Part shown: one piece after another, positions 547 through 51,553 of the stretch
Position numbering within the stretch: position 1 is the stretch's first letter
Layout of the letters: each line of letters starts with the position of its first letter
From: Chlamydiota bacterium
GTDB lineage: Bacteria > Chlamydiota > Chlamydiia > Chlamydiales > JACKPQ01
Reading direction: 5' to 3'
Assembly (NCBI GenBank): GCA_021772435.1
Contig: JAJFLZ010000048.1
Span: forward strand, 15,449-79,448
DNA: 64,000 nt
Position numbers and translations under genes: made by a program
The notes under the pieces: model-generated
Databases searched by the model: none
What the model saw: the letters and a program-made list of their open reading frames with translations, nothing else
Told to the model about the DNA's origin: nothing

Positions 547-2121
547 TTAACTAGTTTTAAATTCAGAAAAATTTGCACGTGCAAGATCTTCAACTGAAAG
601 CTTGTAGCGATAGGTCCAGTTGGAGCTAAGGATTGTGCCGGGACGGTTGATGCGCTCATCTTCGGGATCGGTGGAAGTTAGGTCGCCGGTACATGCTAGA
701 TATTCGTTTAGGAGGTTGATGTGGAAGAGCGTTGGGGTCTGATGAGAGAGTTTAATAAACTTTTTTTGAGTCTCGGAAGTGAATTCAGGCGTGTAGGTCC
801 AGCCAAGCATGTCACAAAAATCTTTAGCATCGGATGGGTAGGTTTGCCACCAGCCCTTGATGGGAAGGAGGTCGTGAGAGGAGAGGCTAGTTAAGTTAAC
901 AGGGTCGTAGTCTTCAAGGGGTATGTAGGGGCCGTGGCCTTTGTCTTCTCGCACGTAGCCGATGATACGGGTGCCGGGAATGCCTAGGTTTTCGAGAATT
1001 TTGTCAGCGCCATCTGGCATGATGCCTAGATCTTCTGCGATGGGGAGCATGTCTGAGGCTGCGATCATGTGTGTGAGGACATCGAGTCCTTGGGTGAGGA
1101 CAAGACCTGGATCAGACGGGATGAAGTGGCCTGTGGTTGGCAGCTGTCCTTTTTCCATGGCCCAGATGCGAAAGCACCCGATGACGTGGTCGATGCGGTA
1201 GATGTGGTAGAAGTGAGATGCGTAGTGCAGGCGTGTTTTCCAAAAGGCGTAGTCGCTTTGGCTAATCGCGGGCCAATTGTAGAGAGGGAAGTTCCAGCAC
1301 TGTCCGTCTTTGTTAAATATGTCGGGAGGCGCCCCTGCAACGAGATCGAAGTTGAAAAAGTGAGGCGTGTGCCAACAGTCGACGCTATCGGTGTTGATCA
1401 GAATGGGGATGTCTCCCATGAGTTTAATGTTTTGCCGGTCGGCATAGTCGCGCACTTGCTTGAGCTGTTTGAAGCAGAGGTACTGCAAGGCGCTGTAAAA
1501 TTCGATTTGTTCTTGGTGGTCTTTTGCAATTTTTTTAAGATCTGTATGGCTTAAGGCATGCAAGTTCTCTGGCCATTCTACCCAGGGGCGTTGATCGTTG
1601 TCGTCTTTAAGTGCTCGGTAAAGGGCATACGGCAAAAGCCAGCTATTGCTTTTACAAAAGTCTAAATAATCGTCTTGAATGAGAAGCGATTGTTTGACGC
1701 TTTGGAAGTATTTTTTTAAAAAACCCATTTTGAATTGGTAGACAGCTAGATAATCGACGCGCTTTTCAGGATCGATAGCCGGAGCATTGCTTAGGTCTTT
1801 TTCTAGAATGGAATGCGTGTCTAAAAAGGGGAGTTTGCGCAGGGATAGATAGATGGGGTGCAACGCGGTGGAGGATAAGGCGCTGTATGGTGAGCTGACT
1901 GCACCTGTATCGTTGACAGGAAGAATTTGAATGATGTCAAAGTCGCATTTTTTTGCATAGTCGACCATAGCGAGGAGATCGAGATATTCGCCGCAACCCA
2001 CGCTTTGTTTGGAGTGAATACCCAGCAGCGGAAATAAGAATCCGTGGTGATGTCTGATTCCGATTTTTTGCCAAATGTCTTTGAGGGGCGTTTTGCTTAA
2101 GGCTTTCTCGATTGCTTTCAT
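547..2121 (-). CDS. malQ: 4-alpha-glucanotransferase (amylomaltase, GH77)
   Basis: 524-aa ORF with a GH77-like N-terminus (GIHSKQSVGCGEYLDL, ILPVNDTG) and later RIDHVIG and SSHD segments. It sits next to the T3SS chaperone/copN block, as in Chlamydia. Confidence 0.85.
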   Translation of the reverse strand: MKAIEKALSKTPLKDIWQKIGIRHHHGFLFPLLGIHSKQSVGCGEYLDLLAMVDYAKKCDFDIIQILPVNDTGAVSSPYSALSSTALHPIYLSLRKLPFLDTHSILEKDLSNAPAIDPEKRVDYLAVYQFKMGFLKKYFQSVKQSLLIQDDYLDFCKSNSWLLPYALYRALKDDNDQRPWVEWPENLHALSHTDLKKIAKDHQEQIEFYSALQYLCFKQLKQVRDYADRQNIKLMGDIPILINTDSVDCWHTPHFFNFDLVAGAPPDIFNKDGQCWNFPLYNWPAISQSDYAFWKTRLHYASHFYHIYRIDHVIGCFRIWAMEKGQLPTTGHFIPSDPGLVLTQGLDVLTHMIAASDMLPIAEDLGIMPDGADKILENLGIPGTRIIGYVREDKGHGPYIPLEDYDPVNLTSLSSHDLLPIKGWWQTYPSDAKDFCDMLGWTYTPEFTSETQKKFIKLSHQTPTLFHINLLNEYLACTGDLTSTDPEDERINRPGTILSSNWTYRYKLSVEDLARANFSEFKTS

Positions 2122-3503
2122 GTTTTTGTGTACCGTGTATTGCGCCCAGAAGAGATGCGTTTAATCTGGCCTTGTTTTGCAAGTGTTGAGAGATGGCGGC
2201 TGGCTGTTGATCTGGGCAAGTCAAAGCGTTCCATGACATCGGCTACAGTAATTTCACTTCCATAATCGAATATTTTTAAAATGTGTTCTAAATCTGAGGA
2301 TTTTTGTGTCGGCCCTGCAGCGGTTTCTCTTGGCAAGATACATTTGATATAGTTTTGCCCTTGGATCACTTGAGGTGTTTTGAGGTTTTTTTGTTTGTAG
2401 GTCCTAAATAAGGTAAGTAAACCAGATCCAAGTTTTTCAATGTAACCAGCTTCACGAAACACTTTGCAAATCGCCATGTTGCGAATGTAGGTGGCTCCTG
2501 TCTGAAGATGATCTAAGTCGATAGGTCCAGGGAAGACGCCGGGGCTAAAAATTTCGATGCGGTTATCGTAAATCGCAATTTTTGTAGGTCCTTGAATGTG
2601 GTAATTGCGGTGCACAAGTGCGTTGATGACGACTTCGCGAAGAGCTTCTTCAGGAATTTCGAGTTCTTCTTCTCGCTCAGCATTTTTTATTTTAAACGAG
2701 CGATAGAGCCGTTTTGTGAGGAAGTGCATTGCGTCAGCGTATTGTTGAAAAAGGGTGCCGATGCAGTCTGTTGTGGCAAGGACGTCCCTACCTTCATTTC
2801 CTCTAAAGTGCGTACAGATAATCATGGCTTCAGGAAAGTAGTATTGGGGATCTTGGTTAAAAAGGAGTAAACCTGCAACGGAAGGATATGTTTTTGTGTG
2901 TTCTTCAGCGATGAGGTAGTAGGATTTAAGCGTGTGATAGTTAATGATAGCATCGCCTTTGACTTTTCGTTTCTCTAGAAAACGCTGGATAGCTTCATGA
3001 TCAAGTAGGTCGACATCGGCGTGATAGACGGGTGTGCAATCGTATGAGATGCGTTTTGCTGACCATTTTAGCTCTTCGATCATGTCGGCGTTGGCTCTAA
3101 CTGTATGGTGGCCCATGCGAATGTAGGTGCCTTTTTCTAATCCTTCAGATTTACGGAAATAAGGCTTATTCATGCCCGCGGAAACTTCGATGATAAGGAT
3201 TGTTTTTTCGCCGATGAGCTGAGCGTAAACCCGAGGAATAATGGGAGGGGAACAAGCGTCATAAATCGCTTTATCGATGGCCTCGAGCGATGCTTGCACT
3301 TCTTGCTCTCCAAGACCTGTGATTGTTCCGTTATTGGCTACACCAATAACTAGTTTACCGCCATGTTGGTTGCAGAACCCGATCATCGTTTTCACGATTT
3401 GATCGTCTTTGGGAATAGTCCTTTTAAATTCAAGAACAGAGGACTCAGATTCAGAGTGTTTCATGTATTCTCCGCTTTCCTTCATTTTAGCAAAATGAGT
3501 CAA
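2118..3503 (-). CDS. COG2865-type ATP-binding regulator (AlbA_2/Schlafen-like N-domain, HATPase_c_4-like core, C-terminal wHTH)
   Basis: N-terminus ESSVLEFKR...IGFCNQHGGKLVIGV is typical of the AlbA_2 divergent AAA domain. The C-terminal part ITVADVMERFDLPRSTASRHLSTLAKQGQIKR looks like a winged HTH. The track start at 3503 is TTG. The ATG at 3464, preceded by GGAGAATAC, or the ATG at 3485 is a more likely start. Its stop overlaps the malQ start (ATGA). Confidence 0.7.
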   Translation of the reverse strand: MTHFAKMKESGEYMKHSESESSVLEFKRTIPKDDQIVKTMIGFCNQHGGKLVIGVANNGTITGLGEQEVQASLEAIDKAIYDACSPPIIPRVYAQLIGEKTILIIEVSAGMNKPYFRKSEGLEKGTYIRMGHHTVRANADMIEELKWSAKRISYDCTPVYHADVDLLDHEAIQRFLEKRKVKGDAIINYHTLKSYYLIAEEHTKTYPSVAGLLLFNQDPQYYFPEAMIICTHFRGNEGRDVLATTDCIGTLFQQYADAMHFLTKRLYRSFKIKNAEREEELEIPEEALREVVINALVHRNYHIQGPTKIAIYDNRIEIFSPGVFPGPIDLDHLQTGATYIRNMAICKVFREAGYIEKLGSGLLTLFRTYKQKNLKTPQVIQGQNYIKCILPRETAAGPTQKSSDLEHILKIFDYGSEITVADVMERFDLPRSTASRHLSTLAKQGQIKRISSGRNTRYTKT

Positions 3504-3640
3504 TTTGAGTCAAAAAATGGTATTAAATGACTCAAATTGACTCAGTTGGTCTTTGGTGGTGAGTTAAATGAGTCAAATTAAGTTGTTGTAGATTAATGAT
3601 TTGTGTATTTTATGACACTAATTGACTCAATTGTGAGTCA
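3496..3640. repeat. array of seven TGAGTCA/TGACTCA heptamers, including a perfect 17-bp inverted repeat
   Basis: Copies start at 3496, 3506, 3528, 3538, 3569, 3623 and 3634. TGAGTCAATTTGAGTCA (3496-3512) is the exact reverse complement of 3528-3544. Neighbouring copies are spaced 10-11 bp apart. Confidence 0.9.
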
Positions 3641-4084
3641 ATTAGTGAGGTCGATATTTTGGTCTTTGGTCATGTAGGTTTTGACGGGGGAGGTCTGGCC
3701 AGAGTCAAGGGCGTTTTTCCAGTCGAGGCTTATCGCGAGGAAGTGGGAAAGGTAGTCGGAAAGGGCGTCGATGTGGAGGGCTTTGGTGGCGAGGTAGGAA
3801 AAGAGAACGAGGGTGTTGGTTTGTTTGGCGTAGGCTAGAGTTGCTAGAGGTGGAGGGAATTCGACATTGGCGGCAAGGGCTGCTGCTAAGACTTCTTGCC
3901 GGAATTTTCCGGGTGGTAGCTCAAAGATGGGCGAGACGATGAGGATGTTTTCTTCCGAGGCGTCGGGTTCGATCTGGATGGCGATGTCGTTATCAATGAT
4001 GAATTGACAGGCGCCGTTGGAGTCGACAAGGAGCTCGGTATCCAGTTTTTCAGAGAGTTGGTAGATGATGTCGTAAAAGCTCAT
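3638..4084 (-). CDS. type III secretion chaperone, CesT/SycE-like (Scc1-like)
   Basis: 148-aa acidic protein. Its start overlaps the copN stop (ATGA). It sits immediately downstream of copN, which is the position of scc1 in Chlamydia. Confidence 0.7.
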   Translation of the reverse strand: MSFYDIIYQLSEKLDTELLVDSNGACQFIIDNDIAIQIEPDASEENILIVSPIFELPPGKFRQEVLAAALAANVEFPPPLATLAYAKQTNTLVLFSYLATKALHIDALSDYLSHFLAISLDWKNALDSGQTSPVKTYMTKDQNIDLTN

Positions 4085-5247
4085 TCTTCTTCGTCCTCGT
4101 CATCGAGCTCGTCTTCGAGATCGGATAGGGTTTCGATTAGTGTCATGAGCATGTCTTGGCGGTGTTTTTCGTTTTTGAAAAGGCGAGGGGATACCCCGCG
4201 CATGGCGTCGCGGTATTGAGTGAAGATGATGATCTGGGCGATGATGTCTTCTTTGATGCCAAGGGCTTGTGATAGGCGCAGAATTTTATCAGGCGAGGGG
4301 TAGCGCTCTTTGAGAAGAGAAACTAGAAGCTTGGAGAGGTTTTCAAAGTCCAGATATCGATTTACGGAGAGGGCGTTTTGCTCGTATTGCTGGCGGATGA
4401 TGCGTCCTCTACTTTTGAAGAAACGGTAGACTCCTAGGATGGCTTGCATGTTTTTTGTCTCAGAGACCAGCGTGTGCAATTGACCTTTGCTGATGGATGA
4501 GCCTTTGGCAGTTAGATCGGCGCGCAGCGATTTGAGCATGAATTCTATGGCTTCTTTCATTTTGTCGTAGGTGTATTTTTGAATGAGTTCTTCAAAAAGT
4601 GTCTGCGCATCGCGTGGATTGCCGGTAATGTCGCGGTAAAGGTCGCGCAGCTCACTTGGAGAGGCGAGCTCTGCATGTGATCTGGATACGCCGCCCATGT
4701 TGCGGCCAGCGATGATTTCTCTGCCACGGAGAGAGCGGATGAGGTCTTTGGTGCGCCTTAGGCGTTTGTAGGCAGATGAGCTAGGATGGAGTGTTTCAAG
4801 CAGGTAGTCGAGCGCTTCATCGGCAAGCGATGGATCGGCAAATCGCTTTATGATGATGTCTAATGTTTCTTCTTCTGATTGGGCTTGCTGCACTTCGGCA
4901 TGGAGGCCAAGGAGTTTTGTTGCATCCATCTCCGCGTTGCGTTTTTGGTAGAATTTGGCTAAGGCTTCAGCTTTTGCAAAGATCTCTGTTTTTTCGGTGG
5001 GTGGCGGCGCTTTAGCTTCCTGCGCTTGCTTTTGGGGCGTGTCTTGTTTAGCAGCACCTCGCTTTTGTAGCTCTTTAAAGTATTTTTGGCGGGCGATGAC
5101 ATCTGAGGCTTGCTCAGTTGCGACTTCGCGATAAAGGGCTTTGGATTCTTTTTGGACGATGTTGTGCAGTGCGGTTTTTTTTACGGCAGCTACAAATTGC
5201 GCTTTGCCTGCACCTGAAACGCTTTCTGGTCCTGAAACTTCTGCCAT
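4081..5247 (-). CDS. copN: T3SS gatekeeper SctW (CopN/LcrE/YopN family)
   Basis: 388-aa protein directly downstream of sctV. It has a helical HrpJ/TyeA-like body and an acidic tail (EDELDDEDEEE). Confidence 0.75.
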   Translation of the reverse strand: MAEVSGPESVSGAGKAQFVAAVKKTALHNIVQKESKALYREVATEQASDVIARQKYFKELQKRGAAKQDTPQKQAQEAKAPPPTEKTEIFAKAEALAKFYQKRNAEMDATKLLGLHAEVQQAQSEEETLDIIIKRFADPSLADEALDYLLETLHPSSSAYKRLRRTKDLIRSLRGREIIAGRNMGGVSRSHAELASPSELRDLYRDITGNPRDAQTLFEELIQKYTYDKMKEAIEFMLKSLRADLTAKGSSISKGQLHTLVSETKNMQAILGVYRFFKSRGRIIRQQYEQNALSVNRYLDFENLSKLLVSLLKERYPSPDKILRLSQALGIKEDIIAQIIIFTQYRDAMRGVSPRLFKNEKHRQDMLMTLIETLSDLEDELDDEDEEE

Positions 5248-5250
5248 AGT

Positions 5251-7371
5251 TTACTTTAGCTGTACGCGGCCAAGCGGTTGAATGCGGATTTCTGGGACGA
5301 TCTCCTGGTAGGATACGACCGGTAGTTCGGGGAAATCTCCCTCGATAAGTTTGCGCACAAAACGTCGCACGTCCATGTTGGTGATGATCACAGGTGGCTG
5401 CCCTTCAGGCGGCGTTGGCGTGATGATCTGGCGCATGGAGCCTAAAATGAGACTGACAGAGTCGGGGTCGAGCGCGAGATAGGATCCAGCTGATGTTTGC
5501 TTGATCGCGCCTCTGACCATGTCTTCGATTTCGGGGTCGAGCATGTAAACAGAAAGGGTTGACTGCCCAAGCGAGTATTTGTAGCTGACGTAGCGTTTTA
5601 AGGATGAGCGCACGTATTCGGTGAGCAGCACGGTGTCTTTTTCAGTTTGGGCCCATTCGCTCAGTGATTCCATGATGGTGCGCAGGTCTTTGATGGAAAC
5701 TTGCTCTTGTATTAAGCGTCTGAAAATTTCGGTGAGTTTTTGCAGCGGTACAAGGCGCGTCACTTCTTTTGTAAGGTCAGGATAGGATTTTTCGACGAAT
5801 TCTAAAATACTGCGTACTTCTTGAATGCCGAGGAATTCAGCCGCGTTATGCCTAAAAAAGTGGGATAGATGCAGGATCATCACTTCGAGCGGATTCCAGT
5901 ATTTGATGCCCGATTTTTTCAAGATCTCTTCGTATTTGGCCTCGACCCAAAGCGAGGCTTGACCGATGGCGTTTTTGGATGTGGTGAAAGGTAAATTGTA
6001 GCGGCGCAGGTTTTCTTCAATTTCGTTGGTTAGAAGATAGCCTTTTAGAATTTTTCCGCGCACGATCGGAACTTCGTTTAAAAAGATGTTGTATTCGTCT
6101 TCTTCAAGTGTTGGCGATTCTGTTCTAACGTGTACACCGGGAAAACGAACGCCTAAGTCTTGGTAGAGTGCAGCGCGCATTTTCGGGATCATCTCTTCAA
6201 CAAAGGAGATGCCACCTTTTTGTTTGCGAATTTGATCAGAGAGGTATTTGCCGGTCTCTAAAATAACAGGAAGCGTTAAAGCGTAATCGTCTGTTTCACC
6301 GCGGACCATGGTGTGCCCGTCGACATCGGTTTCAACTGCAGAGCCGCCCGCTGCGATACGCTTAGCATTTTTACGCTCTTTCCAGAGTTTGCGTCCGCTG
6401 ACGCCGCCCACAATGATTGCAACGCTGAAAAAGAGCCAGGTAGGAAACCCGGGGATGAGGCCGAGCATGACTAGGACAACTGTGGCAAGTAAGATCGCTT
6501 TAGGTTGAGCAAAAAGCTGCTGAGTTATGTCTTTTCCAAGATTGGAATCTTTTTTGTCACTTGTCACACGGGTGGTGACAATACCGGCAGAGAGGGAAAT
6601 CATGAGCGACGGGATTTGTGAGACAAGACCCGTACCGATAGAGAGTAGAGTGTAGATTTGCGCTGATTGCAAGGCAGTCATGCCGTGGACGGTCATTCCA
6701 ATGATCAAGCCGCCGATGATGTTGATGGCTGCAATGACGATACCAGCAATAACATCCCCTTTTACGAATTTCATGGCACCATCCATGGCACCGTAGAGCT
6801 GACTCTCTTTTTGCAGCTGCAGGCGCATCTCGCGACCTTTATTTGCGTCGATGACTCCTGCGCGCATGTCTGCATCGATGCTCATTTGTTTACCAGGCAT
6901 CGCATCGAGGGTAAAACGAGCTGCAACCTCAGCCACGCGCTCGGCACCTTTTGTCACGACGATGAATTGGACGATGGTGATGATTAAGAAGATGACACCA
7001 CCGACAATAAAGCTACCACCCACAACATATTCACCAAACGTGTGGATAATTTCTCCTGCATCAGCGTGAAGCAAGATTTGTCTTGTCGCAGAAATCTCAA
7101 TCCCTAAGCGAAAGAGCGTCGTGATAAGGAGAACGGAGGGAAAGATGGAGAGCTGCGTTGCTTTAGCAATGTAGAGCGCCACCATCAAGATGGCAACGGA
7201 CGCGGTTAAGTTAACGGCAACTAAAAAATCGATGATTTCAGGAGAGATCGGAATAATGATAACCATGATGATGGTGATCACAAAGAACGCTAAGATGACA
7301 TCTGTCGATCCTGAAAGAAGGTTCATGATGCGGTTGCTTGCAAGTCCGCGTGTGAGTTTATTTGTTGCCAT
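5251..7371 (-). CDS. sctV: T3SS export gate protein SctV (CdsV/LcrD, FHIPEP family)
   Basis: 706 aa with a multi-TM N-terminal half carrying FHIPEP signatures (MPGKQMSIDADMRAG, FVKGD) and a large cytoplasmic C-domain. Confidence 0.95.
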   Translation of the reverse strand: MATNKLTRGLASNRIMNLLSGSTDVILAFFVITIIMVIIIPISPEIIDFLVAVNLTASVAILMVALYIAKATQLSIFPSVLLITTLFRLGIEISATRQILLHADAGEIIHTFGEYVVGGSFIVGGVIFLIITIVQFIVVTKGAERVAEVAARFTLDAMPGKQMSIDADMRAGVIDANKGREMRLQLQKESQLYGAMDGAMKFVKGDVIAGIVIAAINIIGGLIIGMTVHGMTALQSAQIYTLLSIGTGLVSQIPSLMISLSAGIVTTRVTSDKKDSNLGKDITQQLFAQPKAILLATVVLVMLGLIPGFPTWLFFSVAIIVGGVSGRKLWKERKNAKRIAAGGSAVETDVDGHTMVRGETDDYALTLPVILETGKYLSDQIRKQKGGISFVEEMIPKMRAALYQDLGVRFPGVHVRTESPTLEEDEYNIFLNEVPIVRGKILKGYLLTNEIEENLRRYNLPFTTSKNAIGQASLWVEAKYEEILKKSGIKYWNPLEVMILHLSHFFRHNAAEFLGIQEVRSILEFVEKSYPDLTKEVTRLVPLQKLTEIFRRLIQEQVSIKDLRTIMESLSEWAQTEKDTVLLTEYVRSSLKRYVSYKYSLGQSTLSVYMLDPEIEDMVRGAIKQTSAGSYLALDPDSVSLILGSMRQIITPTPPEGQPPVIITNMDVRRFVRKLIEGDFPELPVVSYQEIVPEIRIQPLGRVQLK

Positions 7372-7374
7372 TTT

Positions 7375-8457
7375 TCATTGCTCCAAAATTTCGGTGTATT
7401 CTTTTTCTCGATCTTCGAGGGCTCCCACCCATTTCATTACCTCTGCTACCGCTGTATAGACCTCGTCGTCTTGCGGGATAAAATTGCCTTGCTTTCCCTG
7501 ATTCCACAATGTCTGCGCTAGCAGCGGATTGCGGAAAATCGGAATATCGTAGTTGACGGCAATTTTTATCATGTTCTCTGCCGCTACGCCTTTACCCATC
7601 GTCAAGATTTTCGGCGCGGGCATATCTTCTGGGTCGTACTCAAGCGCCACAGCGATGTGGGTTGGGTTTGTAACCACAGCCTTGGCTCGCATCGTTGCTT
7701 GTGGACCTTCCTGGTAGGCGACCTCTCTGGCGATTTCCTTGCGCTTGCCCTTGATATGGGGGTCACCCTCAGTATCCTTCATCTCTTGTTTAACCTCAAA
7801 TTTTTCCATTTTCATTTCTTTTGAAAACTGTTTTTTTTGAAAAATGAGGTCGAAAATAGCAATGCTAATAAAAAATATTCCGACACGAATTAAAACTTTA
7901 ATTAAAAAATCGTTGAAGACACCCAAAGTGACCGTTATTGGCAGGCCGGCTGTTGCGATGATGTCAGATAAGCTGGTTTTCATCACAGAATAAATCAAAA
8001 TACAAGCGATCGCAATTTTCAATACTGATTTTAAAAGTTCAAATAACGTCTTGAGTTTGAACTTATTTTTAATTCCATCGACGGGATTTAAACGTTTAAA
8101 ATCAAATTTCATCGCTTGCATGGAAAACATGGGGCCGATGATCAAAAAGTTGACTAGCACGCCAACGGAGACGACAATAACTAAAAGCGGAAGGGTCGTG
8201 CTCATGATCATCTCGATGGCATAGGTCATATAACCGGCTGCCTGCTGTCTTAAATCGACTTTTGCTGGGATTGAGCGAAACATTGCAATCATGTAGCTGC
8301 CCAATTGCTCAAAGAAAAAATGAGCCATGATCAGCGTCGTTGCAATCGATACGATAAACGTAAACGCTGAAGGAAAATCTTGTGATTTAGCGACCTGCCC
8401 CTTTTTTCTTGCATCACGCAATTTTTTCGGGGTGGCCTGTTCGGTTTTTTCTGCCAT
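7375..8457 (-). CDS. sctU: T3SS autoprotease/substrate switch SctU (CdsU/YscU)
   Basis: 360 aa. N-terminus MAEKTEQATPKKLRDARKKGQVAKSQD, four TM segments and the NPTH autocleavage motif (VVTNPTHIAVAL). Confidence 0.95.
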   Translation of the reverse strand: MAEKTEQATPKKLRDARKKGQVAKSQDFPSAFTFIVSIATTLIMAHFFFEQLGSYMIAMFRSIPAKVDLRQQAAGYMTYAIEMIMSTTLPLLVIVVSVGVLVNFLIIGPMFSMQAMKFDFKRLNPVDGIKNKFKLKTLFELLKSVLKIAIACILIYSVMKTSLSDIIATAGLPITVTLGVFNDFLIKVLIRVGIFFISIAIFDLIFQKKQFSKEMKMEKFEVKQEMKDTEGDPHIKGKRKEIAREVAYQEGPQATMRAKAVVTNPTHIAVALEYDPEDMPAPKILTMGKGVAAENMIKIAVNYDIPIFRNPLLAQTLWNQGKQGNFIPQDDEVYTAVAEVMKWVGALEDREKEYTEILEQ

Positions 8458-8556
8458 CCACCGTCCATTTTAGCTCTTACAACATTCTCTAGCAAGGGCA
8501 AACAATCGCTTGCTTTTATTTATCCTTCACATCAAAATCGCATGCTAAAAGGAGTT

Positions 8557-9120
8557 ATGATGTTCGTTTCAAGCGCAACTGAAAAGCCATCTAATCAGGG
8601 TGGACAACCACAGAAGAACCAGCCCAAAACGCGTAACATTGCTAGGTCATTATTCGGAAAATCGCCAAAGCATAGAGGCCTTGTGGATAAAAAAAGTCCT
8701 AGTGATGTTGAAATTTTAACTCCGTACAAACAAAGTAATACAGCTGTGGGAGAAGAGTCTCCATCAGCACGTATTATTGCTAGCTTAGAGAGTGAGATTG
8801 ACACTTTCCAGGGTCACTACAGTCCTATTGGTAAACTGCCTACTGCCCAGGATGAAGATAATTTAGATGAGCTGGCTGAAGTGTTATACCCAAAACGGCA
8901 GCCAAAGCATGCAAATGGGTCTTTACAAGGTTTATTTGATCAATATGTTCAGCCAGAGCAAAATGCTCCAGAAGATTTAGAGCCGGTGACTCCTCCCCAA
9001 AGAGCCAAGATTAGAGCAGATAAAGAGCTACCTAATACTCACGATTTGTCACATCTTCTTAAAGATTTAGGTATTGAAGAGTCAAAGAGTGAGCAACTAG
9101 ACAGGCTTTTGGATACTTAA
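8557..9120 (+). CDS. hypothetical hydrophilic protein
   Basis: ORF track 8542..9120. The ATG at 8557 follows AAGGAG. The sequence is Q/P/K/E-rich with no hydrophobic segment and no motif I recognise. It is divergent from sctU. Confidence 0.5.
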   Translation: MMFVSSATEKPSNQGGQPQKNQPKTRNIARSLFGKSPKHRGLVDKKSPSDVEILTPYKQSNTAVGEESPSARIIASLESEIDTFQGHYSPIGKLPTAQDEDNLDELAEVLYPKRQPKHANGSLQGLFDQYVQPEQNAPEDLEPVTPPQRAKIRADKELPNTHDLSHLLKDLGIEESKSEQLDRLLDT

Positions 9121-37586: not shown

Positions 37587-37663
37587 TGGCGCGGGAGACG
37601 AGACTCGAACTCGCAACTTCCAGCGTGACAGGCTGGTGCTCTAACCAGTTGAACTACTCCCGC
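37587..37663 (-). tRNA. tRNA-Asp (GTC), CCA encoded
   Basis: I folded it by hand. The acceptor stem is GCGGGAG/CTCCCGC, the anticodon loop is CTGTCAC, the T-loop is GTTCGAGTC, and the 3' end is GCCA. Confidence 0.9.
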
Positions 37664-37674
37664 AACTGGATTTT

Positions 37675-37747
37675 TGGGCGCAAAAGGACTCGAACCTATG
37701 ACCGCCTGTGTGTAAGACAGGAGCTCTACCAACTGAGCTATACGCCC
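37675..37747 (-). tRNA. tRNA-Val (TAC)
   Basis: Acceptor GGGCGTA/TGCGCCC, D-arm GCTCAGTTGGTAGAGC, anticodon loop CTTACAC and T-loop GGTTCGAGTCC. No CCA is encoded. Confidence 0.9.
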
Positions 37748-49402: not shown

Positions 49403-50050
49403 ATGAGGTTATTTTTTTTATTATTGGTGTTGCCGATTGTTGGCTTTTGCAATATCGAGAAAGACGATATTCTGAAAGAATTTTCTTTAAATATGAAGGA
49501 GGCCGATATTGATGGAGCCTTCCAGTCTATTGATCAATGGAAGGAATTGTATCCTGATGATATTCATATGGCAGAAGTTTGTAGAGCATTTTTGTTACTG
49601 CTGGATGAAAAACTCGATCAGGCAAGGTTTTTATTTGAGGCTCATCTCCCTGAGATTCCTACTCAAGATGGACAGCTTGCTTCACAAAGCCAAATAGCAG
49701 GCCTTTTTTATCGAATCCTACAGATGTATGAAAACCCTTTAACTTTAGAGGCTTTAAACTCTGAAGCTAGAGTGGTTTTATGTAAAAAACGTTCACGGTT
49801 TTGGAAGGGTAAGGCGATTCTGGGAATGGTGACGATGGCGGCTGGTGCGGTTGTTGCAGTTGTAAATCCTCCTCTTGGGTGGGGAATGATAATTTCATCA
49901 ATACCCATGGTAGCAGAAGGAATAGAAAATTCAGAAGACTATCATGAAGAGATAGAGAGAAGAAAGTCTGAAAATAGGCGGACAGAAGCTGAATTGGATC
50001 GCACATCATATTTTTATGAACCCAGGAACAATGGACTAATAATGGTTTGA
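49403..50050 (+). CDS. hypothetical membrane protein with N-terminal signal and a bilobed hydrophobic domain
   Basis: MRLFFLLLVLPIVGFC, then AILGMVTMAAGAVVAVVNPPLGWGMIISSIPMVAEGI (two hydrophobic lobes split by NPP). Confidence 0.55.
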   Translation: MRLFFLLLVLPIVGFCNIEKDDILKEFSLNMKEADIDGAFQSIDQWKELYPDDIHMAEVCRAFLLLLDEKLDQARFLFEAHLPEIPTQDGQLASQSQIAGLFYRILQMYENPLTLEALNSEARVVLCKKRSRFWKGKAILGMVTMAAGAVVAVVNPPLGWGMIISSIPMVAEGIENSEDYHEEIERRKSENRRTEAELDRTSYFYEPRNNGLIMV

Positions 50051-50056
50051 TGTGAA

Positions 50057-50124
50057 TGAGTCATATGAGTCAAATATAGGTCTTTTTATGACTCATATGA
50101 CTCACCTTTGACTCACATGAGTCA
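50057..50124. repeat. second array of six TGAGTCA/TGACTCA heptamers, including a perfect 16-bp inverted repeat
   Basis: Copies start at 50057, 50066, 50089, 50098, 50109 and 50118. TGAGTCATATGAGTCA (50057-50072) is the exact reverse complement of 50089-50104. The array lies between two convergent 3' ends. Confidence 0.9.
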
Positions 50125-50176
50125 TAAAGAAGATGTTGTTAACTACCTGAAAAACAACGGGCTTTGATAGAATAGA

Positions 50177-50695
50177 CTAATTCCAGGGCATTTTCTCAAG
50201 GAGCATCTCGGTGTAGCAGACCCCGCGGATGGCTGAGAAAGTAAAACCAAAACCAATGAAAAAGGGGAGGAGAAACCACCAGGGATTCCAAACAAGGCCA
50301 AAGATCATCCCGATCAGGATGAGAGAGCCAGCCAGCAGATAGACCTGACGTTGGATAGAGAAAGTGGCTTTTCCTTTAATGAAAGGGATACCTGCTTTTT
50401 CCCAGTCGTTTAGATGTCCCTTTACGTAGACAAGTTTTTCAGGGTCCAGCCCCATTTTTTCAAGGTCTTCGCACGCTTGCTTGCAGCGAATACCTGCTTG
50501 GCAATAAAAGTAGGCTTTGTCAAGCTTATTAATGGCCTCTTTTTGGTCGGAAAGAGATTTGTAGGGGATGTTTTCTGCCCCTTCAATATGTTCTGATTTA
50601 AACTCGCTAGGGTAGCGAACGTCGATGATCTTTTCCTTTTCTGAAAGCCCTTTGTCTAGGACCGCTTTAAATTCTTCTAGAGATACCGTTTTCAT
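50177..50695 (-). CDS. rhodanese-domain membrane protein (YgaP-like, rhodanese + DUF2892)
   Basis: Rhodanese active-site loop CQAGIRC, followed by two C-terminal TM helices. Confidence 0.75.
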   Translation of the reverse strand: MKTVSLEEFKAVLDKGLSEKEKIIDVRYPSEFKSEHIEGAENIPYKSLSDQKEAINKLDKAYFYCQAGIRCKQACEDLEKMGLDPEKLVYVKGHLNDWEKAGIPFIKGKATFSIQRQVYLLAGSLILIGMIFGLVWNPWWFLLPFFIGFGFTFSAIRGVCYTEMLLEKMPWN

Positions 50696-50768
50696 AAAAA
50701 ATCCTTGGTTCTTTTCTAATATTTAAAATTAGTGGAAATAAAAGTCGATCTATTTTAGGAGTGGCTTT

Positions 50769-51386
50769 ATGGCACGTAAAAAAAGAGTGGATCCTATGTT
50801 TAAAAAGTACTTTGGTATTGAAACCCCTATCGTTTACTTAGAAGATGTCAAAGTGCAGAGCAAAATAGAGGAGCGCTTTAACCGATCATGGAAACGGTTC
50901 TACAAAAAGGCCGATCCGATCATTTCCGATTTTCGAGGGGAGCGGCTCGAGGCTTTTTTTAGACAGCTCGAAAGAGATGGCTCTGACGAACGGTACAACA
51001 GACGGGTGAGCATCCGCTTTATCAACCCAGTCGTGGGCTATGGCGTTTTCGCTAAAGAAGATATCCCCCCCTACTCCACCTTGGCGCAGTATACGGGCCT
51101 TCTCATGCTCGATGAGGAGATCGACCCCGACCACGATAGCACCTTCTCCTTTTCTGACTATAAAACCTACTCAATCGATGCGGCAAACCATGGAAATTGG
51201 GCCCGCTTCATGAACCATTGCGGAGAGGGGGAAGCAAAAAATAATGCGATCCCTTGGGAATTCTATACCGAAAAAGGTCCTCGCGTTGTTTTCACCTCAG
51301 GAGCTCATGGAATTAAGAAAGGGAAACAGATCCTTTATTCTTATGGAGATGAGTACTGGACCGAGAAAAAATGTGTGAAGTTCTAA
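50769..51386 (+). CDS. SET-domain protein lysine methyltransferase (eukaryote-like)
   Basis: GYGVFAKEDI, ARFMNHC (the NH(S/C)C motif) and LYSYGDEYW (the ELxYDY-like post-core). Confidence 0.85.
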   Translation: MARKKRVDPMFKKYFGIETPIVYLEDVKVQSKIEERFNRSWKRFYKKADPIISDFRGERLEAFFRQLERDGSDERYNRRVSIRFINPVVGYGVFAKEDIPPYSTLAQYTGLLMLDEEIDPDHDSTFSFSDYKTYSIDAANHGNWARFMNHCGEGEAKNNAIPWEFYTEKGPRVVFTSGAHGIKKGKQILYSYGDEYWTEKKCVKF

Positions 51387-51498
51387 GACTTTCAGTGAGA
51401 TAGAGAACAAATACAAATAATTATTTGCAATAAAGTTTCTAATTCTGTAATTAGTTAATTATAGGGCGAAGGCAAACCTATGTTTGTCCCTGCTTTTG

Positions 51499-51553
51499 CC
51501 TGTGGTTGCTACCTAGGGGTGCCTGAAAGGTATCCATAGGTAGCAATCACAGG
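51499..51553 (+). promoter_or_regulatory. 17-bp stem hairpin in the leader of the DUF378 gene pair
   Basis: CCTGTGGTTGCTACCTA (51499-51515) pairs with TAGGTAGCAATCACAGG (51537-51553), with one G-U. The loop is 21 nt. The structure ends 30 nt before the ATG at 51584. Confidence 0.5.

Follow-up and report, generated by a model that had tools for sequence, protein, structure and literature searches.

A helically phased heptamer array upstream of a chlamydial Schlafen-GHKL-winged-helix gene is a predicted private auto-operator

The most frequent architecture among prokaryotic Schlafen proteins, pSlfn-HisKinase-HTH, accounts for 19.2% of them (PMC13056530, Nat Microbiol 2026). More than 90% of the so-called Schlatpase proteins bear a helix-turn-helix (HTH), and this composition has also been named Schlatpase-HTH (bioRxiv 10.64898/2026.05.29.728809). 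In the literature that we searched, no DNA target, trigger or function is described for the HTH-bearing class. In SLFN-pAgo (RzAgo), ATP drives the SLFN-GHKL module into a C2 tetramer, and DNA recognition by an appended sensor licenses tRNA cleavage (bioRxiv 10.64898/2026.05.29.728809). TrlG, a related protein with AlbA_2 and HATPase_c_4 domains, causes growth arrest in Photorhabdus (bioRxiv 10.1101/2020.06.02.129163). Here, we analyzed a stretch of 64,000 nucleotides from a Chlamydiota bacterium (assembly GCA_021772435.1, contig JAJFLZ010000048.1, positions 15,449 to 79,448; hereafter the window), in which an array of TGASTCA heptamers lies directly in front of a gene of the HTH-bearing Schlafen class, here termed the regulator gene. 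Based on sequence comparisons, we consider it likely that this array is the private auto-operator of the adjacent Schlafen-GHKL-winged-helix protein.

The regulator has the same three domains, nuclease and GHKL motifs and full-length fold as the proteins described as pSlfn-HisKinase-HTH or Schlatpase-HTH, COG2865 and DIP2311 (3LMM). Compared to the described pSlfn-HisKinase-HTH proteins, the difference is the array of sites, which is predicted to overlap the promoter and to be private to the paralogue. The SLFN-GHKL module is common to the regulator and RzAgo. However, the sensor of RzAgo is a guide-loaded Argonaute, whereas here it would be a sequence-specific winged helix directed toward its own promoter. 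The C-terminal fold resembles that of the ArsR/SmtB- and MarR-type autorepressors CadC, HlyU and SqrR, and the operator likewise lies over the own promoter, which in our case is a predicted one. While those autorepressors are small dimers that bind one palindrome, 380 residues of nuclease and ATPase precede the winged helix in the regulator, and its monomer-sized heptamers are arranged in tandem pairs (2+2 plus auxiliary pairs) that are phased over 145 bp. In the ParR/parC system of plasmid R1, helically phased 10-11-bp repeats flank the promoter of the operon that encodes the binding protein, with cooperative binding and autorepression. In contrast, the locus described here is chromosomal, has no partition NTPase, encodes an unrelated protein and has repeats that are confined to one side of the gene. 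Autoregulatory operators as such are a known type of element; with respect to the literature searched, its predicted occurrence in the commonest bacterial Schlafen class, its tetramer-like phasing and the apparent orthogonal diversification of proteins and sites are new.

The array consists of seven exact copies of TGASTCA (starts at 3496, 3506, 3528, 3538, 3569, 3623, and 3634) and an eighth, degenerate heptamer (TGAGTTA, 3560-3566) that is placed 9 bp from its partner at 3569. Given the genome rate, the probability of finding seven heptamers within 145 bp is below 1e-16. The whole window contains 19 copies against 8.6 expected, a number reached in 0 of 100 shuffles, while the source assembly (1.80 Mb, 48 contigs) contains 162 against ~236 expected from mononucleotide composition. 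The core of the array has a 2+2 form, in which a tandem pair of sites is followed, across a 15-nt spacer, by a second tandem pair in inverted orientation, so that the 17-bp arms 3496-3512 and 3528-3544 are a perfect inverted repeat. Farther from the gene, 3616-3629 and 3634-3647 are the 14-bp arms of a perfect palindrome. All seven exact copies, spread over 138 bp, fit a helical lattice with a best period of 10.6 bp (resultant 0.96), hence the sites face the same side of the helix. Across the eight heptamers the site consensus is (A)AATGAGTCA. Independent assemblies of four metagenome runs yielded contigs with an identical array sequence. An earlier note on this DNA, made from the sequence alone, had pointed out the seven heptamers, the 17-bp inverted repeat with its 15-nt spacer and the 10-11-bp spacing within heptamer pairs, all of which we found as described. 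It had also taken the core to be palindromic. The letters TGASTCA are correct, while the palindromy is incidental, as orthologues use the non-palindromic TGAGGCA, TGAAACA and CGACTCA. The same letters, TGA(C/G)TCA, make up the AP-1/GCN4 site of eukaryotic bZIP proteins. This likeness is a coincidence, because the orthologous operators are non-palindromic and the central base sets a consistent orientation (GG..CC). A relation to AP-1/bZIP was therefore dropped, since exactly those letters are changed in the orthologous operators, and the same alterations led us to discard a GANTC methylation site (HinfI/CcrM-type).

The proximal heptamers coincide with a predicted sigma-70-type promoter (Table 1). 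The -35 hexamer TTGACT is composed of a T and the first five letters of the heptamer 3512..3506, and the heptamer 3502..3496 lies within the promoter spacer. The proximal pair is positioned at -48/-38 from the ATG, a position also held in orthologues. An equivalent promoter is present in at least 13 orthologues: in most of them TTGACT is formed by the first proximal heptamer, whose start lies -48 to -58 from the ATG, and TAnnnT follows 17-18 nt later. Alignment of 13 operators, anchored on the proximal heptamer, revealed the common layout AATGAGTYA-AATGAGTCA / ~15 AT-rich nt / TGACTCA-N2-3-TGACTCA / wwwTGc-TAnAAT|GAGTCA / Shine-Dalgarno sequence / ATG. A fifth site over the -10 is usual in the orthologues. 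Sites over the -35, the spacer and the -10 would occupy the classic position of a repressor. The true start of the regulator gene is the ATG at 3464 and not the TTG at 3503, since in an alignment eleven homologues all begin with M(K/R)YPExES there. With this start the array is wholly intergenic and upstream of the gene. The earlier claim that the array covers the promoter and the 5' end of the gene was therefore half right: the predicted promoter is overlapped, the 5' end is not covered.

Table 1. Features at and around the heptamer array, in window coordinates.
Feature	Coordinates	Strand	Basis or remark
malQ, 4-alpha-glucanotransferase gene	547..2121	-	ATG overlaps the regulator stop codon (ATGA, 2118-2121)
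Regulator gene, SLFN/AlbA_2-GHKL(HATPase_c_4)-wHTH protein, 448 aa, COG2865, 'pSlfn-HisKinase-HTH'	2118..3464	-	Pfam, alignment, structure model and Foldseek
Predicted sigma-70-type promoter: -35 TTGACT 3513..3508, 18-nt spacer, extended -10 TGcTAAAAT 3489..3484	3484..3513	-	Consensus scan and conservation
Promoter-proximal tandem pair, TGACTCA-AAT-TGACTCA on the gene strand	3496..3512	-	Overlaps the predicted -35 hexamer and promoter spacer
Distal tandem pair, perfect inverted copy of 3496-3512 across an AT-rich 15-nt spacer	3528..3544	-	With the proximal pair, predicted 2+2 core operator
Auxiliary pair, TGAGTTA (3560-3566) and TGAGTCA (3569-3575), 9 bp apart	3560..3575	-	
Farthest auxiliary pair, TGACTCA (3623) and TGAGTCA (3634), head to head within a palindrome	3616..3647	.	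Overlaps the stop codon of the CesT-like chaperone gene, 3638-3640
CesT-family type III secretion chaperone gene	3638..4084	-	Upstream boundary of the presumed inserted cassette
tRNA-Asp and tRNA-Val genes, junction of two populations	37587..37747	-	Read depth, left (1-37600) / right (37750-58000): X1 7.5/~1-4; X2 27/0; X3 9/0; X4 6/0; X5 ~3/6.4; X6 0/~1-3
Putative orphan array, six exact heptamers, 9-bp pair spacing	50057..50124	+	Aligns with the whole promoter-operator layout of the clade

Pfam analysis of the regulator revealed SLFN_AlbA_2 (PF04326, E 7e-22), HATPase_c_4 (PF13749, E 8e-18) and, at residues 408-455, winged helix-turn-helix (wHTH) matches to HTH_IclR, MarR_2, HTH_20 and HTH_5. 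The nuclease motif E7-x4-E12-x-K14 is intact, and E7, E12 and K14 are invariant in an alignment of 11 sequences. The pattern E-x4-(D/E)-x-K is the Schlafen nuclease motif of SLFN-pAgo and of mammalian Schlafens (bioRxiv 10.64898/2026.05.29.728809). Likewise invariant are the N-box and glycine-box residues of the GHKL domain (E277, N281, H285, G346, G348) and, in the Schlafen-box region, which reads IGFCNQHGGKLVIGV, F30, N32, G35, G36 and G41; the first residues of this box are unlike SAFAN. An AlphaFold model (predicted local distance difference test score, pLDDT, 80) matched DIP2311 (3LMM) over the full length in Foldseek (E 1e-22). The N-domain matched the nuclease domains of SLFN11/13/5 and the SAMD9 tRNase, and the GHKL region gave weak matches to PDK and histidine kinases. 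The C-terminal winged helix (helices 391-430 plus wing) superposed on CadC, HlyU and SqrR at 1.5-1.9 A. Its recognition helix is PRSTASRHLSTL. On the basis of motifs and model, the protein is predicted to combine the SLFN/AlbA_2, GHKL-ATPase and C-terminal wHTH domains that define the COG2865 / pSlfn-HisKinase-HTH class. In view of its intact nuclease (E-x4-E-x-K) and ATP-binding motifs, the protein is probably not a plain regulator but a potentially toxic RNase. PADLOC matches (pAgo/Aga models, Csa3/CARF HTH, AbiEi) covered partial domains only, and no known defence system was assigned.

Using tblastn we found three further paralogues of the regulator in the source assembly. The paralogue with 55% identity has a TGACTCA array directly in front of it (C32:5735-5803, sites at -48/-39), which is the only TGASTCA cluster of at least three copies in the assembly outside the two in the window. 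Its read depths equal those of the array before the regulator gene. The gene itself is split across two contig ends (C32, C26) by a miniature inverted-repeat transposable element (MITE) of 165 bp. The 36%-identical paralogue (C29) is preceded by five copies of GGTGCAATT, arranged as tandem pairs, and its orthologue in another genome (L007) by ten copies of the same motif. Homologues were found in 21 of 41 related genomes and form a patchy, multi-copy family. Nearly all full-length homologues (~445-460 aa) have a short motif directly before the ATG that recurs every 9-11 bp, with motifs as different as TGAGGCA (seven copies), TGATTCA, CGACTCA, ATCTGGCA (four to eight copies), TTGCAGGAT and TTCCGTGT. 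About 40 homologues from Chlamydiota and beyond have arrays at this same position. A wider scan, taking one genome per species, added 80 loci. In the upstream 200 bp the top 7-mer occurred at least three times in 37 of 75 homologues, as compared to 5/75 and 9/75 in two coding controls. In the close clade (at least 48% identity; mostly Chlamydiota, plus metagenome-assembled genomes (MAGs) of Verrucomicrobiae and Gammaproteobacteria) the layout found at the regulator gene is nearly always present. The arrays are strictly upstream, and in 38 loci of the clade no clustered copies were found inside the gene or up to 600 nt downstream. One genome encodes seven paralogues with seven different predicted operators.

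When the proteins were sorted by the recognition helix of the C-terminal winged helix, five groups emerged. PRSTASRHL, found in the window gene and in L056 (52% identical overall), goes along with TGAGTCA (n = 2), (A/P)RATAGRRLN with TGACTCA-ATC-GACTCA (TGACTCAATCGACTCA; n = 4), SRATAQRWLN with TGAGGCA (n = 2-3), SRNTA(T/S)R with GGTGCAAT (n = 2) and SDRTARTRLK with TTCCGTGT (n = 2). The operator motif thus tracks the recognition helix.

Several family members show variations of this arrangement. The operators of L005, L053, L055 and L070 are built from pairs of two different heptamers, such as TGAGTCA + TGCATCA, TGAAACA + TGAGTTA or TGAGTCA + AGGAGAT, with the 2+2 inverted symmetry kept. These mixed pairs hint at hetero-oligomers of paralogues or at two reading surfaces. 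Two longer, distant COG2865 homologues with 28-29% identity (L141, G016:C499; L142, G019:C2) have no array, and a small Xre-type HTH gene precedes them instead. In these two cases the same effector module would be controlled in another way. The 26%-identical paralogue (C4:18035-19504) contains four in-frame tandem 12-bp units AGGCCCGAGTC(A/G) at C4:19253-19300 that encode (SRPE)4, a linker just before the winged helix. The core of these units, CGAGTCA/CGAGTCG, is one letter away from the heptamers TGAGTCA/TGAGTCG. The region upstream of this paralogue contains no matching array.

Searching the whole assembly for paired heptamers (9-11-bp spacing, at most one mismatch), we found three arrays only, plus one match in a decayed MITE; the reversed-genome control gave 2. 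Paired heptamers are confined to the arrays, and therefore no wider regulon was found in the assembly. In 40 related genomes exact pairs are all but missing: a single pair occurs in each of seven relatives, and the backward pattern gave 0 matches. One of the seven pairs lies before an orthologue, four are single pairs in coding sequence that look like chance, one is in a repeat-rich contig end and one in the array of L031. The same-genus genome G001, which has no homologue, has no paired sites and only a decayed relic at the empty site. The L031 array (G016:C37), made of TTGAGCCAAAG, was set aside as unrelated, since it is located inside the coding region of a parA-adjacent gene. At L031 1247-2398, ~14 copies with an 11-bp period lie within coding sequence, and the protein repeats KVEP/SQSEAKVEP. 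These repeats could be a centromere written into the gene of a centromere-binding protein.

The earlier note had proposed an autoregulatory operator, and this proposal is strengthened by the overlap with the predicted promoter, the arrays of the paralogues and of ~40 homologues, the tracking of motif and helix, the lack of paired sites elsewhere in the assembly, and their near-absence from the 40 related genomes. We propose that one C-terminal ArsR-like winged helix reads each heptamer. A dimer of dimers, known for the ATP-bound Schlafen-GHKL modules of SLFN-pAgo, would occupy the 2+2 core. There the protein would block RNA polymerase and keep its own level low, and the translationally coupled malQ would probably be repressed likewise. 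The farther phased pairs (3560-3575, 3623-3640) may add cooperative binding or looping. Keeping itself under tight control would be sensible for a protein that is probably a potentially toxic RNase. Operator and gene would behave as a single cassette.

A number of observations weigh against this reading. The promoter is a consensus match only, and shuffled sequence of the 500-bp stretch yields about one such match. The lone match is thus no better than shuffles, and the weight rests on its conservation among orthologues. The fifth, -10-overlapping site of most orthologues is missing from the window gene, which appears to have lost it. That the protein represses and does not activate is inferred from the position of the sites. 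The tetramer is taken from a distant relative with a different sensor domain. Distant longer family members (28-37% identity, other phyla) are mostly without an exact-repeat array. Lastly, the 17-bp and 14-bp stems of the array are able to fold at -25 and -19 kcal/mol (z ~ -7).

The second array of the window, at 50057, is flanked by the 3' ends of two genes, one for a hypothetical membrane protein and one rhodanese/YgaP-like. Its nearest counterpart is the operator of a Parachlamydia MAG with identical TA spacers; in array 2, however, a further heptamer takes the place of the -10, and there is no gene downstream. We read this array as a putative orphan operator. With the regulator as query, tblastn detected no remnant gene beside it, and neither a promoter nor a terminator was called at the array. 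DNA-level synteny of this region with sister genomes was not found, and the rhodanese and transketolase neighbours are not syntenic there. The local context is reproduced by an X5 contig with 0 differences over 49913-51505. Read depth changes abruptly at the tRNA genes at 37587-37747 (Table 1), and in six metagenome runs no contig was found that spans this break. The depth break together with the missing spanning contig shows that the contig joins two populations at conserved tRNA genes. Hence, the window contig (C43) is chimeric at tRNA-Asp/Val, and array 2 belongs to a second organism. The earlier note had linked both arrays: the second array is real, as the independent X5 contig demonstrates, and it stems from a different population than the first. 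Features to the right of the tRNAs, including the GT10, SET and Inc-like genes, should not be attributed to the organism that carries the type III secretion locus left of them.

On the minus strand the gene order at the first array is a copN-like gene, the CesT-family chaperone gene, the array, the regulator gene and malQ. Because the stop codon of the regulator and the start codon of malQ overlap (ATGA), both genes are probably one transcription unit, read from the predicted regulated promoter. In G004, which belongs to another family, only a 58-bp gap without heptamers separates the chaperone gene from malQ. The two genes are also adjacent in the same-genus genome G001, where a 120-bp gap retains TGAGTCAtaaTGAATCA and TGACTCA (L046, G001:C1 1948-2067). 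These adjacencies in the same genus and in another family bear out the earlier suggestion that the regulator gene is an insertion beside malQ. The simplest account is that an operator-plus-gene cassette was inserted in the ancestor of the genus and that the open reading frame was later lost in G001. The G001 spacer appears to be a decaying relic operator that now stands before malQ.

Beyond its role as an operator, the array might serve as a DNA ligand through which the Schlafen RNase has its activity set, an idea suggested by the analogy to SLFN-pAgo that we regard as unlikely. The four winged helices of an ATP-bound tetramer on the 2+2 sites would fix the nuclease domains in one state, and loss, competition or titration of the array DNA would switch them. 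Candidate causes of such a switch are an orphan array as at 50057, an invading element that carries the motif, or replication or transcription through the site. If true, every paralogue would, through its private motif, act as an autonomous DNA-gated switch for growth arrest or defence. Such switches could explain up to seven orthogonal copies in obligate intracellular chlamydiae.

The array could also consist of cis sites for movement or maintenance of the cassette (recombination sites, iterons or a centromere-like site), with promoter control being secondary. Operator and gene are either both found or both missing at the site between chaperone gene and malQ, the family has a patchy distribution among related genomes and is multi-copy there, an orphan array exists, and phased 10-11-bp repeats at the promoter of the own gene resemble ParR/parC centromeres. 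However, the arrays are one-sided, and in the 38 loci neither the gene itself nor the 600 nt that follow it contain any. The adjacent genes are those of type III secretion and malQ, with no recombinase, Rep, ParA or ParM gene among them, and the fixed register to the -35 and -10 is needed by an operator and not by a recombination site. We therefore judge this explanation to be quite improbable.

The stable stems mentioned above could alternatively point to RNA or DNA hairpins, which could terminate or attenuate transcription of the type III secretion operon reading in, or act as a stability element. In line with this, the 14-bp stem overlaps the stop codon of the upstream chaperone gene, and array 2 has a terminator-like location between convergent genes. 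Neither stem is followed by a U-tract, however, and no terminator-like site was called. Among orthologues it is the letters of the heptamers that are conserved, without compensatory changes, and the motif follows the neighbouring protein's recognition helix. In many homologues the arrays are exclusively direct (four to eight copies, 11-bp period; L010, L013, L138) and unable to form hairpins. The chances of a hairpin function are therefore slim.

It is highly doubtful that the heptamers are bound by another transcription factor and lie beside the regulator gene by chance. The orphan array without an adjacent regulator gene would fit such a factor, whereas the association with one gene family in dozens of genomes and with many different motifs, the motif groups that follow the recognition helix, and the same-genus genome that lacks both the family and the paired sites argue against it. 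A dispersed repeat, repetitive extragenic palindrome or MITE family, raised in the earlier note in view of the second array and conceivable given the abundant 165-bp MITE, is refuted by the genome-wide count and can be dismissed with near certainty: the heptamer is under-represented (162 copies versus ~236 expected), forms only three clusters, two of them before COG2865 paralogues, and is unrelated to the MITE sequence.

As a private auto-operator, the array would point to a DNA target for bacterial Schlafens of the most frequent class, which is still uncharacterised. The predictions are explicit, namely the sequence of the site, a 2+2 geometry that matches a tetramer, an overlap with the core promoter, and residues of the recognition helix that change with the motif. 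The genes appear to travel as operator-plus-gene cassettes and to diversify into mutually orthogonal sets within one genome, and this natural library of orthogonal winged-helix/operator pairs may be useful. In the window, the transcription unit of the cassette would have captured malQ, a gene of glycogen metabolism, immediately behind a type III secretion operon.

The MITE that interrupts the 55% paralogue does so after ~codon 29 (C32:5919-6057, joined to the end of C26; L033, L023) and has 18-bp terminal inverted repeats, AACCTGAACTCTGGGTTT. It gave 87 blastn alignments of at least 140 bp in the assembly, some of which are reverse-strand self-matches, corresponding to roughly at least 50 copies. 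Copies are often found at contig ends, and their k-mer depth in run X2 is 1000-8600 as compared to 29 for the flanks. We also observed four more intergenic arrays of private motifs (8-12 bp, four to five copies each; C1:7217-7401, C26:751-926, C30:25192-25405, and C23:66927-67109). They lie directly upstream of stand-alone genes that combine an enzyme with a winged helix: wHTH-Fic, AAA_14-DUF4143, ATPase_2, and ATPase_2-DUF234. The design of a private operator may be common to several orphan NTPase/HTH families.

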